Shown here one piece after another: positions 1-49,549 of a DNA stretch of 58,250 nucleotides; within the stretch, counting starts at the first letter, position 1; each line of letters starts with the position of its first letter. The DNA is from Verrucomicrobiales bacterium (lineage in GTDB: Bacteria; Verrucomicrobiota; Verrucomicrobiia; Limisphaerales; UBA9464), in NCBI GenBank assembly GCA_027490985.1, contig JAIXXC010000228.1, positions 1 through 58,250 of the forward strand, written 5' to 3'. The notes below the pieces were generated by a model. The model made no database searches and was not told the DNA's origin. It saw only the letters and a list, made by a program, of their open reading frames with translations. The position numbers were made by a program, and so were the translations under genes.

Positions 1-213
1 CAGGCTACGCTACGCCCCGAACCAAACGAGGGCCGGAAAATGGGGAAACATCGTTTCAGTTGCAAACGATTTCTCCTGAAAAGTGAAAATCGCCCGATCC
101 CGAGAACGGCTTTCGGAACTCGTTTCACCCCCAGAAGCCCACGCCCCGACGGCCCGACGCCCCGACTCGCGGCCCGCAAACCGCCCGCCCCGGCATCGAC
201 TGCGTCGCATGGA

Positions 214-25822: not shown

Positions 25823-27364
25823 ATGTCCCTCTCGCTGCCCGGTTTCCGCCGATCCGCCTTGGCCACGATCCTCACGACAGCCTCCACCCTGGGGCTCGGA
25901 TGGGGCCTCACCGCCTGGGGAGCCGACCCCAAACCCAGCCCCAAACCTTCGGGCGCCCAGGTCGACGGCGCTTTCCACAAGGTGATCCTCGACACCGACC
26001 GCGATCAGGACGGCGATGGCACCCCCGAGGACACCGTGGTCAACCCCATGGAGATCGCCGTGGCCCCGGACGGCCGGGTCTTCTACATCGAACGGGCCGG
26101 CCTGTTGAAGGTGTGGAACCCCACGACGCGCTCCTCGTCCGTCGCCGCGACTCTCAAGGTGTTCACCGAACTCGAGGACGGCCTGCTGGGAATCACGCTC
26201 GATCCGAAATTTCCCAAGAATCCGTGGGTCTACCTGTTCTATTCGGATCCCCAGACCCGAACCAACGACACCCAGCACAAGACCGGCGACAATCGGGTCT
26301 CCCGCTTCACCTTCCGCGACGGAACCCTCGACCTGGCCAGCGAGAAGATCCTGATGCGCATCCCCACCCAGCGCGATCAATGCTGTCATTCGGCCGGATC
26401 CCTGGCCTTCGACGCCGCCGGCAACCTGTATGCCGCCACGGGGGACAACACCCACCCCGGCGAATCCGACGGCTACAGCCCCATCGATGAACGCCCCGGA
26501 CGCGAGCCTTGGAACGCCCAGAAATCGGCCGCCAACGCCAACGACCTGCGTGGCAAGATCCTGCGCATCCATCCCGAGGCCGACGGCACCGCCACGATCC
26601 CGGCCGGCAATCTCTTTGCGCCCGGCACGCCCAAGACCCGGCCCGAGATCTATGTCATGGGCAACCGCAACCCCTTCCGCATCAGCGTCGACAAGGCCAC
26701 CGGACACCTCTACTGGGGCGAGGTAGGCCCGGATGCCGGCGGCCCCAACGACAAACGCGGTCCCGCCGGCTTCGACGAGATCAATCAGGCCCGCGCGGCG
26801 GGCAATTTCGGATGGCCGTTCTTCGCCGGAGACAATCGGCCCTACCACCGCTACGACTTCGAGACGCGCCAACACGGGGAACCCTGGGACCCGGCCCACC
26901 CGATCAACCCCTCGCGCTTGAACACCGGACCGTCGGAACTGCCGCCGGCCCAACCCGCCTTCATCTGGTATCCCTACGGAGCCTCCACCCGTTTCCCGGA
27001 GGTGCGCAACGGAGGCCGGACCGCGTGTGCAGGCCCTGTTTACCGCTACGACGCCGCGTTGTCGTCGGCGCACAAACTGCCCAAGGAATTCGACCGGACG
27101 CTCTTCATCTACGAATGGTCCCGCAACTGGATCCTCGCCGTGCACCTCGACGAGGATCACAAGATCGCCAAAACCCCGGATGGCAAGCTCCGAATGGAGC
27201 GCTTTTGCCCCAACATGACCTTCATGCGCCCCATGGACCTCGAGATCGGAGCCGACGGCTGCCTGTATGTGCTCGAAAACGGCACCGCATGGGTCGGAAA
27301 CAAGGACACGCAACTCGTCCGGATCGAGCACCACCCGGTGGCCGGACAGCCCGGGCAACCGTGA
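25823..27364 (+). CDS. exported PQQ-dependent sugar dehydrogenase-like (GSDH) beta-propeller protein
   Basis: EDGLLGITLDPKF, CCHSAGSLAFD, DLRGKILRI, EIYVMGNRNPFR, DEINQ, GNFGWP. Confidence 0.85.
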   Translation: MSLSLPGFRRSALATILTTASTLGLGWGLTAWGADPKPSPKPSGAQVDGAFHKVILDTDRDQDGDGTPEDTVVNPMEIAVAPDGRVFYIERAGLLKVWNPTTRSSSVAATLKVFTELEDGLLGITLDPKFPKNPWVYLFYSDPQTRTNDTQHKTGDNRVSRFTFRDGTLDLASEKILMRIPTQRDQCCHSAGSLAFDAAGNLYAATGDNTHPGESDGYSPIDERPGREPWNAQKSAANANDLRGKILRIHPEADGTATIPAGNLFAPGTPKTRPEIYVMGNRNPFRISVDKATGHLYWGEVGPDAGGPNDKRGPAGFDEINQARAAGNFGWPFFAGDNRPYHRYDFETRQHGEPWDPAHPINPSRLNTGPSELPPAQPAFIWYPYGASTRFPEVRNGGRTACAGPVYRYDAALSSAHKLPKEFDRTLFIYEWSRNWILAVHLDEDHKIAKTPDGKLRMERFCPNMTFMRPMDLEIGADGCLYVLENGTAWVGNKDTQLVRIEHHPVAGQPGQP

Positions 27365-44899: not shown

Positions 44900-44985
44900 G
44901 CCCCCCCACCGCCCCCAAGCGGACGAGTTCGGGCTTGGCTCCCGGGCGGGAAGGGCGCTCAATTTGCGGACTCCCTCCCGATTGC

Positions 44986-46344
44986 ATGAGCACCGACTCG
45001 CCCCAGTTCCTGTCCCGCGAGGCCACCGTGGCCGGGCCAGGATTCTCGCGGTGGTTGGTGCCACCGGCGGCGATCGCCGTGCACATGTGCATCGGCGAGG
45101 TCTACGGTTTCAGCGTCTTCAATGAACCCCTGAGCCGACTCCTCGGCGCCACCGCACACGACCCGGCTCGGGATTGGACCATTCCGCAGATCGGTTGGAT
45201 CTACTCGATCGCCTTGGTCCTGCTCGGACTTTCCGCCGCGGTGTTCGGCAAATGGGTCGAGCGCAGCGGCCCCCGCAAAGTGATGGTCACGAGCGCCACC
45301 TGCTTCTGTTCCGGACTGGTGTTGTCGGGCATCGGAGTGCAGCAGCACTGGCTGTGGCTGGTGTACCTGGGATACGGCGTGATCGGCGGCATCGGACTCG
45401 GACTGGGCTACATCGCCCCGGTGTCCACCCTGATGAAATGGTTTCCGGATCGGCCCGGCATGGCCACGGGCATGGCCATCATGGGCTTCGGCGGAGGCGC
45501 ATTGATCGGGGCCCCTCTCGGCGTGACCCTGATGGCGCATTTCAAGACGGCCACCGATCCGGGCGTCGCGTCCACGTTCTTCGCCATGGCCGGCCTGTAT
45601 GCCGTCTGGATGCTCTTCGGAGCCTGGCTCGTCCGGGTGCCCGCGGCCGATTGGAAGCCAGCGGGTTGGCAACCCGCGGCGGCCGGATCCAAGGCCGGAC
45701 CCGCCCAGGCGGTGTCCGTGGATCAGGCCTGGAAGACCCCCCAATTCTGGCTCCTGTGGATCGTCTTGTGCATGAACGTCAGCGCGGGCATCGGTGTGCT
45801 CGGACAGGCCTCGCTCATGTGCCAAGACCTCTTCGGTGTCAGCGCCGCCGTCGGAGGCGGATTCGCCGGACTGCTGTCGCTCTTCAACATGGGAGGCCGC
45901 TTCCTCTGGTCGTCGGTGTCCGACCTCACCGGCCGGCGCACGGTGTATGCGATCTACTTCCTCCTGGGAGCCCTGCTCTACGCACTGGTGCCCTGGACCC
46001 AGAAGATCGGCAGCCGCGCCCTGTTCGTCGCCGTGACCGCGGTGATCATCTCCATGTATGGCGGTGGTTTCGCCACCATCCCGGCCTACTTGCGCGATCT
46101 CTTCGGAACCCATCAGGTCGGGGCCATCCATGGCCGACTGATCACGGCCTGGTCGCTGGCGGCCATCGTCGGCCCAAATCTCATCAACTACATCTCCGCC
46201 GCGAAGAAGAAGGCCGGCGTGCCCGCGGCCGAAGCCTACAACAGCACCCTGTACCTGATGTGCGGCCTGCTGCTGGTGGGGCTGATCGCCAACCTGCTGG
46301 TGCGCCCGGTGCATCCGCGACACCACCTGGCAACGGCCCGATAG
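44986..46344 (+). CDS. OFA family (oxalate/formate/lactate-type) MFS transporter
   Basis: RWLVPPAAIAVHMCIG..YGFSVF, LGYIAPVSTLMKWFPDRPGMATGMAIMGFGGGA, SMYGGGFATIPAYL, GAIHGRLITAWS. Confidence 0.92.
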   Translation: MSTDSPQFLSREATVAGPGFSRWLVPPAAIAVHMCIGEVYGFSVFNEPLSRLLGATAHDPARDWTIPQIGWIYSIALVLLGLSAAVFGKWVERSGPRKVMVTSATCFCSGLVLSGIGVQQHWLWLVYLGYGVIGGIGLGLGYIAPVSTLMKWFPDRPGMATGMAIMGFGGGALIGAPLGVTLMAHFKTATDPGVASTFFAMAGLYAVWMLFGAWLVRVPAADWKPAGWQPAAAGSKAGPAQAVSVDQAWKTPQFWLLWIVLCMNVSAGIGVLGQASLMCQDLFGVSAAVGGGFAGLLSLFNMGGRFLWSSVSDLTGRRTVYAIYFLLGALLYALVPWTQKIGSRALFVAVTAVIISMYGGGFATIPAYLRDLFGTHQVGAIHGRLITAWSLAAIVGPNLINYISAAKKKAGVPAAEAYNSTLYLMCGLLLVGLIANLLVRPVHPRHHLATAR

Positions 46345-46362: not shown

Positions 46363-46530
46363 ATGCAACGTCTCCTGCTCATCGCCGCCTGGATCCTGGT
46401 GCTGGCCCCTCTGTCCTGGGGGGTGGCCCGTTCGGTCCAGCGCTCGATGCCCCTCTTCACAGCCGACAAAGCCGCCGGCGCGCCGCTCCAGAATGGCTTG
46501 ACGACTCCGACCCAACCCACCAGACCCTGA
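46363..46530 (+). CDS. 55-aa single-TM protein, probable small partner of the OFA MFS transporter (not in the supplied ORF track)
   Basis: MQRLLLIAAWILVLAPLSWGVARSVQRSMPLF...; AW-x5-PL-x-WGV pattern; fills the gap between the MFS stop and the next ATG. Confidence 0.7.
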   Translation: MQRLLLIAAWILVLAPLSWGVARSVQRSMPLFTADKAAGAPLQNGLTTPTQPTRP

Positions 46531-46561: not shown

Positions 46562-47917
46562 ATGAAAACACTGACTCCCCTGCTCCTGGCCTCCGCGCTG
46601 TCGCTGACCGCCGTGGCCGCCGAACCCAAACACAACACCGCCCTCCCCGGCGGCAAACTGCCCAAGCCCGTCAAGGTGTCCCTCGTGAAGGTCGCCGGCG
46701 GCTTCGTCGATCCCGTGCGCGTCTCGCTGGCCCCGGGCGACAACAACCGCCTCTTCGTCTGCGAACGGACCGGCGTGGTGAAGCTCATCAAGAACGGCAA
46801 GGTCCAGGACAAGCCCTTCCTCGACATCCATGAGACGGTGGTCAGCTCCTTCCTCGAGCAGGGTCTCTACGACCTCGAGTTCCACCCGAAATTCGCCGAG
46901 AACGGCAAGTTCTACGTCCACTACTCCGACATGTGGTTCAATGGCGCCGGGTTCATCGTCGAGTACCAGGTCTCGAAGACCAACCCCGACAAGGCCGATC
47001 CGGAGTCGGCCCGGGTGGTCTTCCAAATGCCCCGCCCCTACGCCAACCACAACGGCGGCGAGATCGCCTTCGGACCGGATGGCTACCTGTACATCGGCAG
47101 CGGTGATGGCGGTTGGGAAGGCGACGTCCTGGGTGCCGGCCAAGACCTGAGCACCTGGCTGGCGAAGATCCTGCGCATCGACGTCAACCCCAGCCAACCC
47201 GACCGCGGCTATTCCATCCCCAAGGACAACCCCTTCATCACGCCAGGCTCTCAGATGAAGCTCTTCGGCGTGACCGAAGAGGCCTTCAACAAGATCCATC
47301 CCAACGCCAAGCCCGAGATCTGGAGCTACGGCCTGCGCAACCCGTGGAGCTTCCAGTTCGACCCCAAGACCGGCGACATGTACATCGCCGACATCGGCCA
47401 GAACCACTACGAGGAGGTCAATTTCGAGCCCCGCGGCAAAGCGGGCGTGAACTACGGCTGGAAGTTCATGTGCGGCACCCATCCGTTCCCCCTGCCGCTC
47501 GACGCCAGCGGCAAGCCCGATCTCGATGCGGTCAAGGACGCCCCGAAGGTGGGTGAGGCCCCGATTTGCGAATACAGCCATGTCGACCAGGGCAATTGCG
47601 TCATCGGCTTCGGCGTGTACCGCGGCACCAAATACGCCCAGATGGACGGCACCTACTTCTTCGGCGACTGGGGCTCCGGCAAGGTCTGGGGCACGGCCCG
47701 CGATGCCCAGGGCCAATGGCAGATGCAGGAATTGCTCAACACCAAGCTGATGTTCACCGGCGGCGGTCAGGGTTCCGATGGCACCCTCTACGTCACGGAC
47801 GCCAAGGCCAACTACGGTGGCCCGGCCGATCCGGCACAGAACGAGCGCGGTGCGGTGTGGATGCTGGTGCCTTCCGACAAGGTGCCCGCCGGCGCCGAAG
47901 TGGCCCCGGTGGAGTGA
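46562..47917 (+). CDS. exported PQQ-dependent sugar dehydrogenase-like (GSDH) beta-propeller protein
   Basis: signal peptide; EQGLYDLEFHPKF, NHNGGEIAFGPDGYLYIGSGDGG, KILRIDV, YGLRNPWSF, ADIGQN..EEVN, NYGW. Confidence 0.9.
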   Translation: MKTLTPLLLASALSLTAVAAEPKHNTALPGGKLPKPVKVSLVKVAGGFVDPVRVSLAPGDNNRLFVCERTGVVKLIKNGKVQDKPFLDIHETVVSSFLEQGLYDLEFHPKFAENGKFYVHYSDMWFNGAGFIVEYQVSKTNPDKADPESARVVFQMPRPYANHNGGEIAFGPDGYLYIGSGDGGWEGDVLGAGQDLSTWLAKILRIDVNPSQPDRGYSIPKDNPFITPGSQMKLFGVTEEAFNKIHPNAKPEIWSYGLRNPWSFQFDPKTGDMYIADIGQNHYEEVNFEPRGKAGVNYGWKFMCGTHPFPLPLDASGKPDLDAVKDAPKVGEAPICEYSHVDQGNCVIGFGVYRGTKYAQMDGTYFFGDWGSGKVWGTARDAQGQWQMQELLNTKLMFTGGGQGSDGTLYVTDAKANYGGPADPAQNERGAVWMLVPSDKVPAGAEVAPVE

Positions 47918-47964
47918 TCCATCGCCGCGGCAACCACCCGCGAACCCATCCCGATCTTCCGTCA

Positions 47965-48004
47965 CCCGGGGGCAAAGCTCAGGCTTGGCCCCCGGGCCTT
48001 TTTT
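47965..48004 (+). terminator. intrinsic terminator between the dehydrogenase and cupredoxin genes
   Basis: CCCGGGGGC-AAAGC-tcag-GCTTG-GCCCCCGGG followed by CCTTTTTT. Confidence 0.75.
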
Positions 48005-48035
48005 GGGGTCCACTGTCGAAAACCAACTGATCGCC

Positions 48036-48623
48036 ATGTTCCGGAATCTCGCCCTCGCCTGCGCCCTTGCCCTCAGTCCTCTGGTTTGGGCGGCCGACGC
48101 CCCCGCCGCCCCCGGACACGACCACGGTGCGCCTGCCGCTGACTCCAAGGCACCGGAACCCAAGGAATCGATGTTCCTGTCGGTGGACCCGAAGTCACCG
48201 AAGACCGCACGCCTCGTGGTGGTTTCGGCGTACAACGCGGTGAACTACGGCATGAACTTCAACGGCTTCGCCAAGGGCGGTGCGCGCTACACCATCCCAC
48301 AAGGCTGGACCGTGTCGGTGGTCTTCACCAACAACAGCCCGGTGCCCCACAGTGCGATCGTGGTGGAGAAGCCCGTGGTGAAAAAACTCCAGATGGGCGA
48401 ACCGGCCTTCAAGGGAGCCTCGACGCCCTACCCGGTGCGCGGCACCACGGGCAAGACGGGCGTGCCCTTCGAGTTCGTGGCCGATGAGGCCGGTGAATTC
48501 GCCATCGCCTGCGGCTTCCCCTCGCATTCGGCCAACGGCCACTGGATCGCCTTCGACGTCAGCGCCACGGCGACGGCCCCCAGCCTGCAGTTTGGCGACA
48601 AGCCCGCCTACGTGGCCCGCTGA
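48036..48623 (+). CDS. sulfocyanin (SoxE)-like exported cupredoxin
   Basis: signal peptide; NFNGF, IPQGWTVSVVFTN, PHS (first His ligand), C-x4-H-x4-H loop (CGFPSHSANGHW). Confidence 0.85.
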   Translation: MFRNLALACALALSPLVWAADAPAAPGHDHGAPAADSKAPEPKESMFLSVDPKSPKTARLVVVSAYNAVNYGMNFNGFAKGGARYTIPQGWTVSVVFTNNSPVPHSAIVVEKPVVKKLQMGEPAFKGASTPYPVRGTTGKTGVPFEFVADEAGEFAIACGFPSHSANGHWIAFDVSATATAPSLQFGDKPAYVAR

Positions 48624-49549
48624 TGCCCGTCCCGGTCCTGAACTCTCCCCGTCCCCTGGGCCACTCCGGGGTCTGCCTCGCCTTGGGGATGTTCGACGGG
48701 GTCCATCTCGGCCACCAGCATGTCATCCGGCAGGCCCGGATCGACGCGCGGGCGCGGGGCGACTCCACGGTCGTGGCCACCTTCGATCCGCACCCGTTGA
48801 CCGTGGTCCGGCCCGACAAGGCCCCCCGACTCCTGCAGTCGCTGCCCCAGCGCATCGCCACGCTGGAATCCCAGGGAGCCGACGCCGTGCTGGTGCTCCG
48901 CTTCGATGAGGCCCTGAGCCGGAAGAGCGGCGAGGCTTTCGTTCGCGATCTGGTCGCCGGCTTCGGTGGCCTGCGGAGCTTCACCGTGGGTCAGGGATTC
49001 CACTTCGGTCATGGCCGCAGTGGCAATGTCCCGCTCCTGAGAACCCTGGGCCGCGAACTGGGATTCTCGGTGAATGCCGTGGCGCCGATCCACATCGGGC
49101 CCGAGGTCGTGAGCAGCACCCGGGTCCGCTCCGCCTTGCGCGACGGCAAGCTCGGCCTTGTGGCCGAACTCCTCGGTCGGCCCTACAGCCTCGCCGGGAC
49201 GGTCGTCGAAGGCGACCGACTGGGACGATCTTTGGGATTCCCGACGGCCAACATCCCGGTCGAAGGGCTCGAATTGCCGCCCTTCGGCGTCTACGCCGCC
49301 CGGGCACGCCATGCCGGTGGCGAGTTTCCGGCGGCGGTCAATCTGGGTCTGCGCCCCACACTGCAGTCACCCCAACCGCAGCTACGGTTCGAGACCCATC
49401 TCATCGGATTCGAAGGCGATCTCTATGGCCACGACCTGACGGTGGAACTGGTGGGCTTCCTGCGTCCGGAGCGTCGATTCGCCCACCTCGACGCGCTGAA
49501 AACCCAGATCACCAAGGACATCGCGGCCGCACTGAAGGCCTTGAGCTGA
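48623..49549 (+). CDS. ribF: bifunctional riboflavin kinase/FAD synthetase
   Basis: GMFDGVHLGHQ, TFDPHP, FHFG, VSSTRVR, GRSLGFPTAN, ETHL, LRPERRF. Confidence 0.96.
   Translation: MPVPVLNSPRPLGHSGVCLALGMFDGVHLGHQHVIRQARIDARARGDSTVVATFDPHPLTVVRPDKAPRLLQSLPQRIATLESQGADAVLVLRFDEALSRKSGEAFVRDLVAGFGGLRSFTVGQGFHFGHGRSGNVPLLRTLGRELGFSVNAVAPIHIGPEVVSSTRVRSALRDGKLGLVAELLGRPYSLAGTVVEGDRLGRSLGFPTANIPVEGLELPPFGVYAARARHAGGEFPAAVNLGLRPTLQSPQPQLRFETHLIGFEGDLYGHDLTVELVGFLRPERRFAHLDALKTQITKDIAAALKALS

Follow-up and report, generated by a model that had tools for sequence, protein, structure and literature searches.

What does a cupredoxin do when the methionine on the axis of its copper site is replaced, throughout a natural clade, by histidine? 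In nature, the colour, geometry and potential of a blue copper site are set mainly through its axial ligand; the natural choices we know of are Met, Gln, non-ligating hydrophobic residues and the single Glu/His red site of nitrosocyanin, and to our knowledge a mononuclear Cys-His3 copper set has so far been met only in engineered azurins. The question is raised by a gene at positions 48036..48623 on the forward strand of contig JAIXXC010000228.1 (assembly GCA_027490985.1) from a bacterium of the Verrucomicrobiales, of which the whole stretch of 58,250 nucleotides analysed here is called the window. A preliminary description had read this gene as encoding a sulfocyanin-like cupredoxin with His in place of the axial Met. 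We find that the His is the rule in a well-supported clade of SoxE-family cupredoxins and that the gene travels with that of an exported dehydrogenase, and we put the chance that the protein is an electron carrier of the periplasm, with a His3Cys copper site and dedicated to accepting electrons from the adjoining dehydrogenase, at slightly better than even.

Family and Fold

The gene and its parts are as follows.

48036..48623, forward strand: SoxE-family cupredoxin gene, 195 amino acids, stop codon within (Pfam, AlphaFold2 (AF2) model, fold matches and ratio of nonsynonymous to synonymous substitution, dN/dS)
48036..48092, forward strand: Sec-type signal peptide, residues 1–19, predicted by eye (hydrophobic core, small residues before A20)
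48114..48128, forward strand: GHDHG His patch, residues 27–31, in a flexible mature N-terminal tail (sequence)
48165..48620, forward strand: cupredoxin domain, residues 44–195 (high model confidence from residue 41 onward)
48348..48350, forward strand: codon of H105, predicted N-terminal equatorial His ligand, in the motif NNSPVPHS (invariant in both alignments, A1 and A2)
48510..48545, forward strand: ligand loop CGFPSHSANGHW, with C159 at 48510–48512 (TGC), H164 at 48525–48527 (CAT) and the axial-position H169 at 48540–48542 (CAC)

The open reading frame and its three loop codons were re-derived just as the preliminary description gave them, and the upstream His in NNSPVPHS and the GHDHG patch are where it had placed them. 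An alternative longer frame opens at 47778; the start at 48036 is the likely one, because most of the listed homologues have 196 amino acids and a first Met equivalent to that codon and because a terminator-like hairpin falls inside the 47778 extension. Cleavage of the putative signal peptide would follow VWA, and the predicted local distance difference test score (pLDDT) of the AF2 model is 56–60 across residues 1–30. A lipoprotein reading from C9 was rejected by eye, this Cys being without lipobox context and missing in most homologues. The tail of the mature protein carries at least two His in 113 of 134 sequences of the His/Gln clade defined below and in 11 of 47 Met-type relatives, both sets being redundant.

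The Pfam family PF06525 (SoxE, sulfocyanin) matches residues 56–182 on profile positions 13–145 of 149 with 53.7 bits (cut-off 21, E 2.1e-14), and the sulfocyanin equivalog TIGR03094 reaches 41.4 bits, below its cut-off of 168.4. By these profile scores, the protein is a member of the SoxE family and not an equivalog or orthologue of archaeal sulfocyanin. The AF2 model, built from 126 aligned relatives, has a mean pLDDT of 90.1 and values of 95–99 beyond residue 41, and its best structural match is rusticyanin (Foldseek E 2.8e-6; VIA-align Z 11.9, root-mean-square deviation 2.7 Å over 119 aligned residues, with model range 44..176 paired to rusticyanin chain range 19..155), the auracyanins and the cupredoxin domains of nitrite reductases and multicopper oxidases following close behind. 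As modelled, the protein has the Greek-key β-sandwich of solved cupredoxins. A protein atlas search gave SoxE clusters only and nothing beyond Pfam. Pairwise dN/dS is 0.023–0.07 for most close pairs (143 ungapped codons).

The Axial Histidine

The loop follows the pattern C159-x4-H164-x4-H169. In a phmmer search against the PDB, H169 falls on the axial Met148 of rusticyanin in a loop of equal length, and H105, C159 and H164 align to rusticyanin H85, C138 and H143, with the PHS of the cupredoxin corresponding to H85-S86; the copper ligands of rusticyanin are those listed in an excerpt of PMC13741234. All three residues are invariant in A1 and in A2, a MAFFT alignment of 126 rows. The predicted equatorial ligands are, by alignment, those of a canonical type-1 (blue) copper site, namely an N-terminal His, a Cys and a loop His, and the column of its axial Met is filled by His169. 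The axial column of A2, which agrees with the pairwise alignment, reads Met in 69 rows, His in 44, Gln in 8, Leu in 3, Ser in 1 and Phe in 1, and is flanked by the invariant G168 and the nearly invariant W170. Two other readings of the site were set aside here: a red site of the nitrosocyanin type, since H105 is invariant and no Glu stands in its place although a His does occupy the fourth position, and the axial-Gln type of stellacyanin and auracyanin D, since the cupredoxin has His at the axial position.

A word-indexed homologue search gave 295 proteins at E ≤ 1e-3, of which the best 120, reaching down to 49% identity, were listed. His occupies the axial position in 120/120 of these and in the query, the motif being GHW in 120 of the 121 sequences and GHC in one. 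Among representatives clustered at 50% identity, an exhaustive search found 671 proteins with E ≤ 1e-3; in the best 150 of these, 142 loops could be read, with Met in 97, His in 18, Gln in 17, Leu in 4, Ser in 2, Glu in 2, Gly in 1 and Phe in 1; 10 representatives without a pattern loop are fragments or variants such as P0138 (GHR). Ordered by closeness, the nearest representatives have His, a small neighbouring group has Gln (CGFPAHSANGQW) and the more distant ones have Met. Other natural axial residues of SoxE domains include the Glu of P0203 and P0251, Ser and Phe, with the representatives P0156, P0167 and P0215 also noted, and GHR takes the place of GHW in P0138 and at locus L147.

At the DNA level, genome loci from different species carry a His codon in 80 of 80 cases (CAC 51, CAT 29), and metagenome loci encode His in 48 of 49 and Gln in one (L115, which has no upstream DNA and is followed by an unassigned open reading frame and an aconitase-family gene). 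Gln also appears in the sister sequences P0124, P0125, P0130 and P0186. Gln is one third-base change away from His, and its near-absence therefore argues for selection on His itself. Within these sets the His at the predicted axial position is conserved far beyond chance, and it is neither a private change nor a sequencing error, which the preliminary description had named as an outcome that would undo its proposal; the other sequence-level outcome that it named, a second His out of register with the axial position, is not seen either.

The tree was built from 126 rows and 138 columns with the axial column removed, in a quick IQ-TREE run under the posterior mean site frequency (PMSF) model. 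A single clade unites 43 His with 4 Gln sequences at a Shimodaira–Hasegawa-like approximate likelihood ratio test (SH-aLRT) support of 99, which answers the earlier suggestion to test for conservation of GHW in a clade, and the rest of the tree is dominated by Met; P0234 is a further His of separate origin. Nine changes of axial state are needed on the tree, against a mean of 47.9 after shuffling. The Gln sequences are a subclade with support 97 inside the His/Gln clade, and a tree that unites 42 His rows and leaves Gln outside is not rejected in the approximately unbiased (AU) test (p-AU 0.34), so that Gln derived from His and Gln sister to His are both compatible with the data.

Other residues change with the axial one. 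F161, two positions after the Cys, is present in 100% of the clade and 3% of the remaining sequences, where Val dominates; M73 is found in 98% within and 17% outside; and A158, V103, A83, E111 and E151 are likewise clade-specific. Several of these lie no more than two residues from a ligand, which fits a remodelled second coordination sphere, and we infer from the sequence positions that F161 may pack on the imidazole of His169.

Linkage to a Dehydrogenase

The strongest functional clue, absent from the preliminary description, is the conserved GSDH-like dehydrogenase gene next door. The genes around the cupredoxin and the element between the pair are as follows.

44935..46344, forward strand: major facilitator superfamily (MFS) transporter of the OFA family, L-lactate transporter model (MFS_1; NF049980 326.5 bits, cut-off 320)
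46363..46530, forward strand: 55-amino-acid MFS transporter small subunit, between the MFS gene and the dehydrogenase (NF047966 36.5 bits, cut-off 24)
46562..47917, forward strand: exported GSDH/HHIP-like six-bladed propeller dehydrogenase, the proposed electron donor (PF07995)
47981..48005, forward strand: GC-rich hairpin and T-run between the dehydrogenase and cupredoxin genes (sequence; conservation in the genus)
48623..49549, forward strand: ribF (FAD synthetase/riboflavin kinase), its ATG overlapping the cupredoxin stop (TGATG, 48621–48625)

Immediately upstream of the cupredoxin gene and on its strand, a GSDH orthologue is present in 56 of the 78 genome loci with enough upstream DNA (two more are too short) and in 39 of 42 metagenome loci (seven too short), the exceptions among the latter being L135, where it is 2.2 kb off, and L154 and L156, where there is none; the nine loci of the same genus all have it (9/9). 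Where the pair is split, five of five genomes retain a full-length dehydrogenase orthologue elsewhere, at 63–69% identity, with neither a cupredoxin nor CxxCH alongside. The cupredoxin is present in 19 of 23 genomes of the genus, the four that do not have it being 95, 67, 88 and 95% complete, and five of five cupredoxin-less genomes (these four and one from the same family) hold only dehydrogenase paralogues of 35–44% identity. The two genes are linked and co-inherited.

The dehydrogenase matches PF07995 with 127.5 bits (cut-off 25; 9e-37) and the TIGR03606 subfamily of pyrroloquinoline quinone (PQQ) dehydrogenases with 48.5 bits, below the cut-off of 434.55, and a search for the CxxCH haem motif found none in it. 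In 54 of 56 loci its sequence is better conserved than that of the cupredoxin. H163 (in HNGG) and R259-N260 are invariant across 41 orthologues and are, by motif alone, what we take to be the counterparts of His144, the catalytic residue of soluble glucose dehydrogenase, and of its PQQ-binding Arg/Asn residues, as given in an excerpt of PMC6881789. PQQ dependence of the neighbour is thereby suggested. A second GSDH-family gene lies in the window at about 26042–26866, and the genome holds 12 GSDH-family matches in total, some in frames with CxxCH, a mixed picture that comes from truncated loci.

The further neighbourhood is kept less widely. An MFS gene stands upstream on the same strand in 36 of the 56 adjacent genome loci, and in metagenome loci it is found upstream in 15, downstream on the same strand in 8 and downstream on the opposite strand in 3. 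Synteny with ribF, which a gene of the 3-keto-disaccharide-hydrolase family follows, is limited to the closest relatives (L001–L018, L101–L109). The hairpin with its T5 run recurs in 19 of 55 loci, mostly of the same genus and with a compensating stem change (TTGG/TTTG), and is missing from the other 36; a few other lineages have unrelated hairpins at the same place. A scan of the genome collection gave 327 cupredoxin loci. The distribution is patchy: freshwater and riverine lineages of Verrucomicrobiota commonly have the family, as do some lower-GC metagenome lineages, and no cupredoxin was found in 17 further genera that belong to the same order or family (0/17).

Fused Relatives and the Terminal Oxidase

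SoxE domains also occur as parts of larger redox proteins. Seven representatives join an eight-bladed PQQ propeller (PF01011) to a C-terminal SoxE domain, with Gln at the axial position in five cases and Met in the other two, and P0126, a metagenome protein of 790 amino acids named cytochrome c oxidase subunit II at its source, bears a His-type SoxE domain (CGVPGHAANGHW) in the order membrane anchor, long linker, His-type SoxE, CoxB helices, CuA domain and cytochrome c. From these fusions we conclude that SoxE domains act as integral electron carriers within quinoprotein dehydrogenases; a His-type one is attached to a terminal oxidase. That SoxE domains associated with dehydrogenases tend to have Gln or His is a hint that would fit a lowered potential; the fused cases may be one lineage. 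A search for longer fused homologues gave P0270 alone and no fusion to a GSDH domain, which is weak evidence. This protein of 691 amino acids has a signal peptide, a His-type SoxE domain and then a sulfatase domain in one frame; its cluster comprises 135 member sequences on one contig, and it is either a real fusion or a read-through.

As for a possible electron acceptor, the one CoxB found in the own genome has 257 amino acids and a CuA motif without a cytochrome c domain, and a Sco-like gene adjoins it; three COX1 matches were found. The only other match of that genome to the SoxE model, at 21 bits, is at L082 (G000:C143, 1351–1890), a very long frame ending in a Met-type cupredoxin-like domain (FMPHN ... 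CTFPGHWPVMW).

Proposed Function and Alternatives

Rusticyanin has a potential of about +680 mV and stellacyanin, with Gln, of about +184 mV, and a PQQ-type donor lies at about +90 mV at pH 7. We propose that the cupredoxin, exported through Sec as a single domain, binds one copper through H105, C159 and H164, and that the imidazole of H169 would take over from the axial Met as the fourth ligand, which would make this a natural Cys-His3 site. This stronger N-donor would stabilise Cu(II), distort the site toward a green or "type 1.5" geometry and lower its potential well below those of the Met-type relatives. An excerpt of PMC13746201 gives +85 mV for nitrosocyanin and +163 mV for the red-copper azurin M121H/H46E/F114P, and by these potentials of strong-axial-ligand sites we expect a lower potential here as well; a value of a few hundred mV or less would suit both a PQQ-type donor and a CuA acceptor. 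The haem-less GSDH/HHIP-like dehydrogenase, presumably PQQ-dependent, would then pass the electrons from its substrate to the cupredoxin in the manner of amicyanin, the cupredoxin would hand them to the CuA of an aa3-type oxidase, and the OFA-type MFS transporter would import the acid product. Copper binding, ligation by H169, the lowered potential and the electron path are in this scheme all predicted from sequence and gene order.

A number of observations weigh against this proposal. The AF2 model is metal-free, so the geometry between His169 and Cu is not given by it. Of the 78 genome loci, 22 have the cupredoxin without an adjoining dehydrogenase; most of these bear the label Verrucomicrobiaceae or Prosthecobacter, and in the four of these that were examined (L036, L047, L061 and L063; 4/4) it is divergent from a gene for an extracytoplasmic function (ECF) sigma factor and a large vWA/YfbK_C gene. 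(A Mrp/NUBPL-type ATPase gene and a glutamine-synthetase-like gene lie downstream in L036, L047 and L061.) One deletion is enough to remove two neighbouring genes together, related genomes are not independent of each other, and the four losses within the genus may be one event. In a phylum-wide profile search, none of 200 sampled high-completeness genomes besides that of the window had a match, a sample that is no proof of absence from the phylum. Among the best 150 of the 671 representatives there was no GSDH-SoxE fusion. The neighbour's nearest solved relative is the propeller of vertebrate HHIP (1.8e-35; profile 2.3e-42), with PQQ-dependent aldose sugar dehydrogenases at about 1e-15, which places it nearer to a non-enzyme than to proven PQQ dehydrogenases, and a search for pqqC in the own, 90.5%-complete genome gave no match but is uninformative, the 14 control genomes having given none either. 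Because the hairpin between the two genes is terminator-like, they need not share one transcript. With identities of at least 95%, contigs from four riverine RNA libraries cover the dehydrogenase, cupredoxin and ribF genes; a contig of 619 nt bridges 47733–48349 across the hairpin and another of 661 nt bridges 48384–49042. RNA libraries can contain DNA, a bridging contig is no proof of transcription or of a single mRNA, and these contigs are a weak hint that the gene pair is expressed. Contig depth is greater across the dehydrogenase gene than across the cupredoxin gene and is no basis for ranking the genes.

The nearest alternative keeps the electron carrier and leaves His169 unbound to the metal: copper would be three-coordinate in a His2Cys site, with the imidazole in the second sphere, possibly pH-sensitive, and the potential maybe raised, as it is by the non-ligating Leu or Phe of fungal laccases. 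The metal-free model would accommodate this, residues that do not ligate are natural at this column (Leu in 4, Phe in 1 and Ser in 2 of the best 150 of 671 SoxE representatives), and the clade-specific M73 might offer another contact. The substitutions seen inside the clade speak for ligation, however. Engineered Met121His azurin binds copper through its His; where a member of the clade has a residue other than His it is always Gln, which is known to ligate from the axial position, as in stellacyanin, and no hydrophobic replacement of His occurs in 249 sequences and loci. That the axial Gln of auracyanin D ligates is stated in an excerpt of PMC10804444. We regard a non-ligating His169 as unlikely. 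The His patch suggests another role, namely that of a periplasmic copper-handling protein (buffer, scavenger or chaperone) comparable to CopI or AcoP and not of a respiratory carrier, in which the patch would capture Cu and the His3Cys site hold it. The enrichment of tail His in the clade and the GHDHG tail itself are as such a role would have them, and CopI is described in an excerpt of PMC13308877 as cupredoxin-like with an N-terminal His-rich domain. Yet no copper-resistance or copper-transport gene lies beside the cupredoxin in the window or in the examined loci, its conserved partners being a dehydrogenase and an organic-acid-type transporter; the patch is missing in deep clade members such as P0122, P0127, P0134, P0135 and P0137; and the joining of a His-type domain to oxidase subunit II agrees with electron entry, although a part in CuA maturation would agree with it as well. 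Copper handling is distinctly unlikely on this evidence.

If the fourth position were open or exchangeable, the protein could be a small catalyst, for example an oxidase of NO or another small molecule. Excerpts of PMC13746201 and PMC10804444 offer two precedents, nitrosocyanin, with a His fourth ligand and a proposed role in NO oxidation, and Nmar1307, a T1-like cupredoxin with NO oxidase activity. The equatorial Glu of nitrosocyanin is missing here, where H105 is invariant, no nitrogen-cycle genes lie nearby in the window, and synteny indicates a dehydrogenase as the partner, all of which makes a catalytic role very improbable. To a His3Cys site that holds another metal in vivo (Zn, Fe or Ni) in a structural or sensing role we give hardly any weight: general chemistry is all that recommends it, Cys-His3 sets binding Zn well, whereas the full copper-site scaffold (loop length, G168, W170 and the PHS motif) is kept and relatives are fused to redox enzymes. 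The carrier with a ligating His169 is the account we prefer over these four.

Relation to Known Systems

The closest known proteins are rusticyanin and sulfocyanin (C-x4-H-x4-M), which share with the cupredoxin the Pfam family, the loop spacing, the His-Ser first ligand and the G and W flanks of the axial position; sulfocyanin, according to an excerpt of PMC13741234, also sits with oxidase subunit II. They differ in the axial residue (Met there, His here), in the residue two positions after the Cys (Val or Ile there, Phe here) and in setting, the present protein belonging to neutrophilic freshwater Verrucomicrobiota, with a GSDH-like neighbour, and not to an iron- or sulfur-oxidising acidophile. 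Engineered Met121His azurin and other axial-His variants have the same formal set of Cys and three His in a cupredoxin fold, though azurin itself spaces its loop as C-x4-H-x3-M; these are laboratory constructs, whereas here a natural clade under selection appears to carry co-adapted second-sphere residues. In stellacyanin and auracyanin D a stronger O or N axial donor likewise replaces Met, and a Gln subclade accompanies the His clade (four representatives and one metagenome locus); those proteins belong to different cupredoxin families, however, and in the present clade His, not Gln, is the rule.

With regard to gene order, amicyanin and methylamine dehydrogenase, and azurin and aromatic amine dehydrogenase, are pairs in which a periplasmic cupredoxin stands beside a quinoprotein dehydrogenase as its dedicated acceptor. 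Those enzymes contain tryptophan tryptophylquinone (TTQ) and their cupredoxins are Met-type members of other families; here the enzyme is a GSDH/HHIP-like propeller and the pairing is proposed by analogy. Nitrosocyanin, the red copper protein of Nitrosomonas europaea, is a natural cupredoxin in which His is likewise the fourth ligand; an excerpt of PMC10804444 states that no other red cupredoxin occurs in nature and that Glu takes the place of one equatorial His in it. Its site is Cys-His2-Glu with water, whereas here both canonical His are invariant and Cys-His3 is predicted; that nitrosocyanin did not turn up in the phmmer, Foldseek or VIA-align listings excludes nothing. The preliminary description had given the natural axial variants as mainly Met, Gln or a non-ligating hydrophobe, a list that holds for these residues and has to be extended by nitrosocyanin's natural fourth-ligand His (same excerpt). 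A full-text literature search, with most subscription journals outside its reach, turned up neither an account of a natural clade of Cys-His3 cupredoxins nor one of a cupredoxin partner for GSDH-type enzymes.

Conclusion

The wider claim, that there is a natural and widespread mononuclear Cys-His3 class that works, in Verrucomicrobiota of fresh and marine waters, in a respiratory branch leading from dehydrogenase through copper protein to aa3 oxidase, we advance tentatively, at something short of an even chance. If it is true, a natural Cys-His3 member would join the axial-ligand series, and the coupled-distortion picture would become testable on an evolved protein and not on a mutant; bacterial HHIP-like proteins would at the same time gain their first functional handle. 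The genetic coupling proposes a physiological acceptor for the very common GSDH family, whose acceptors and substrates are mostly undefined, and it points to a periplasmic oxidation module, made up of a dehydrogenase, a copper carrier and an acid transporter, in abundant freshwater Verrucomicrobiota.

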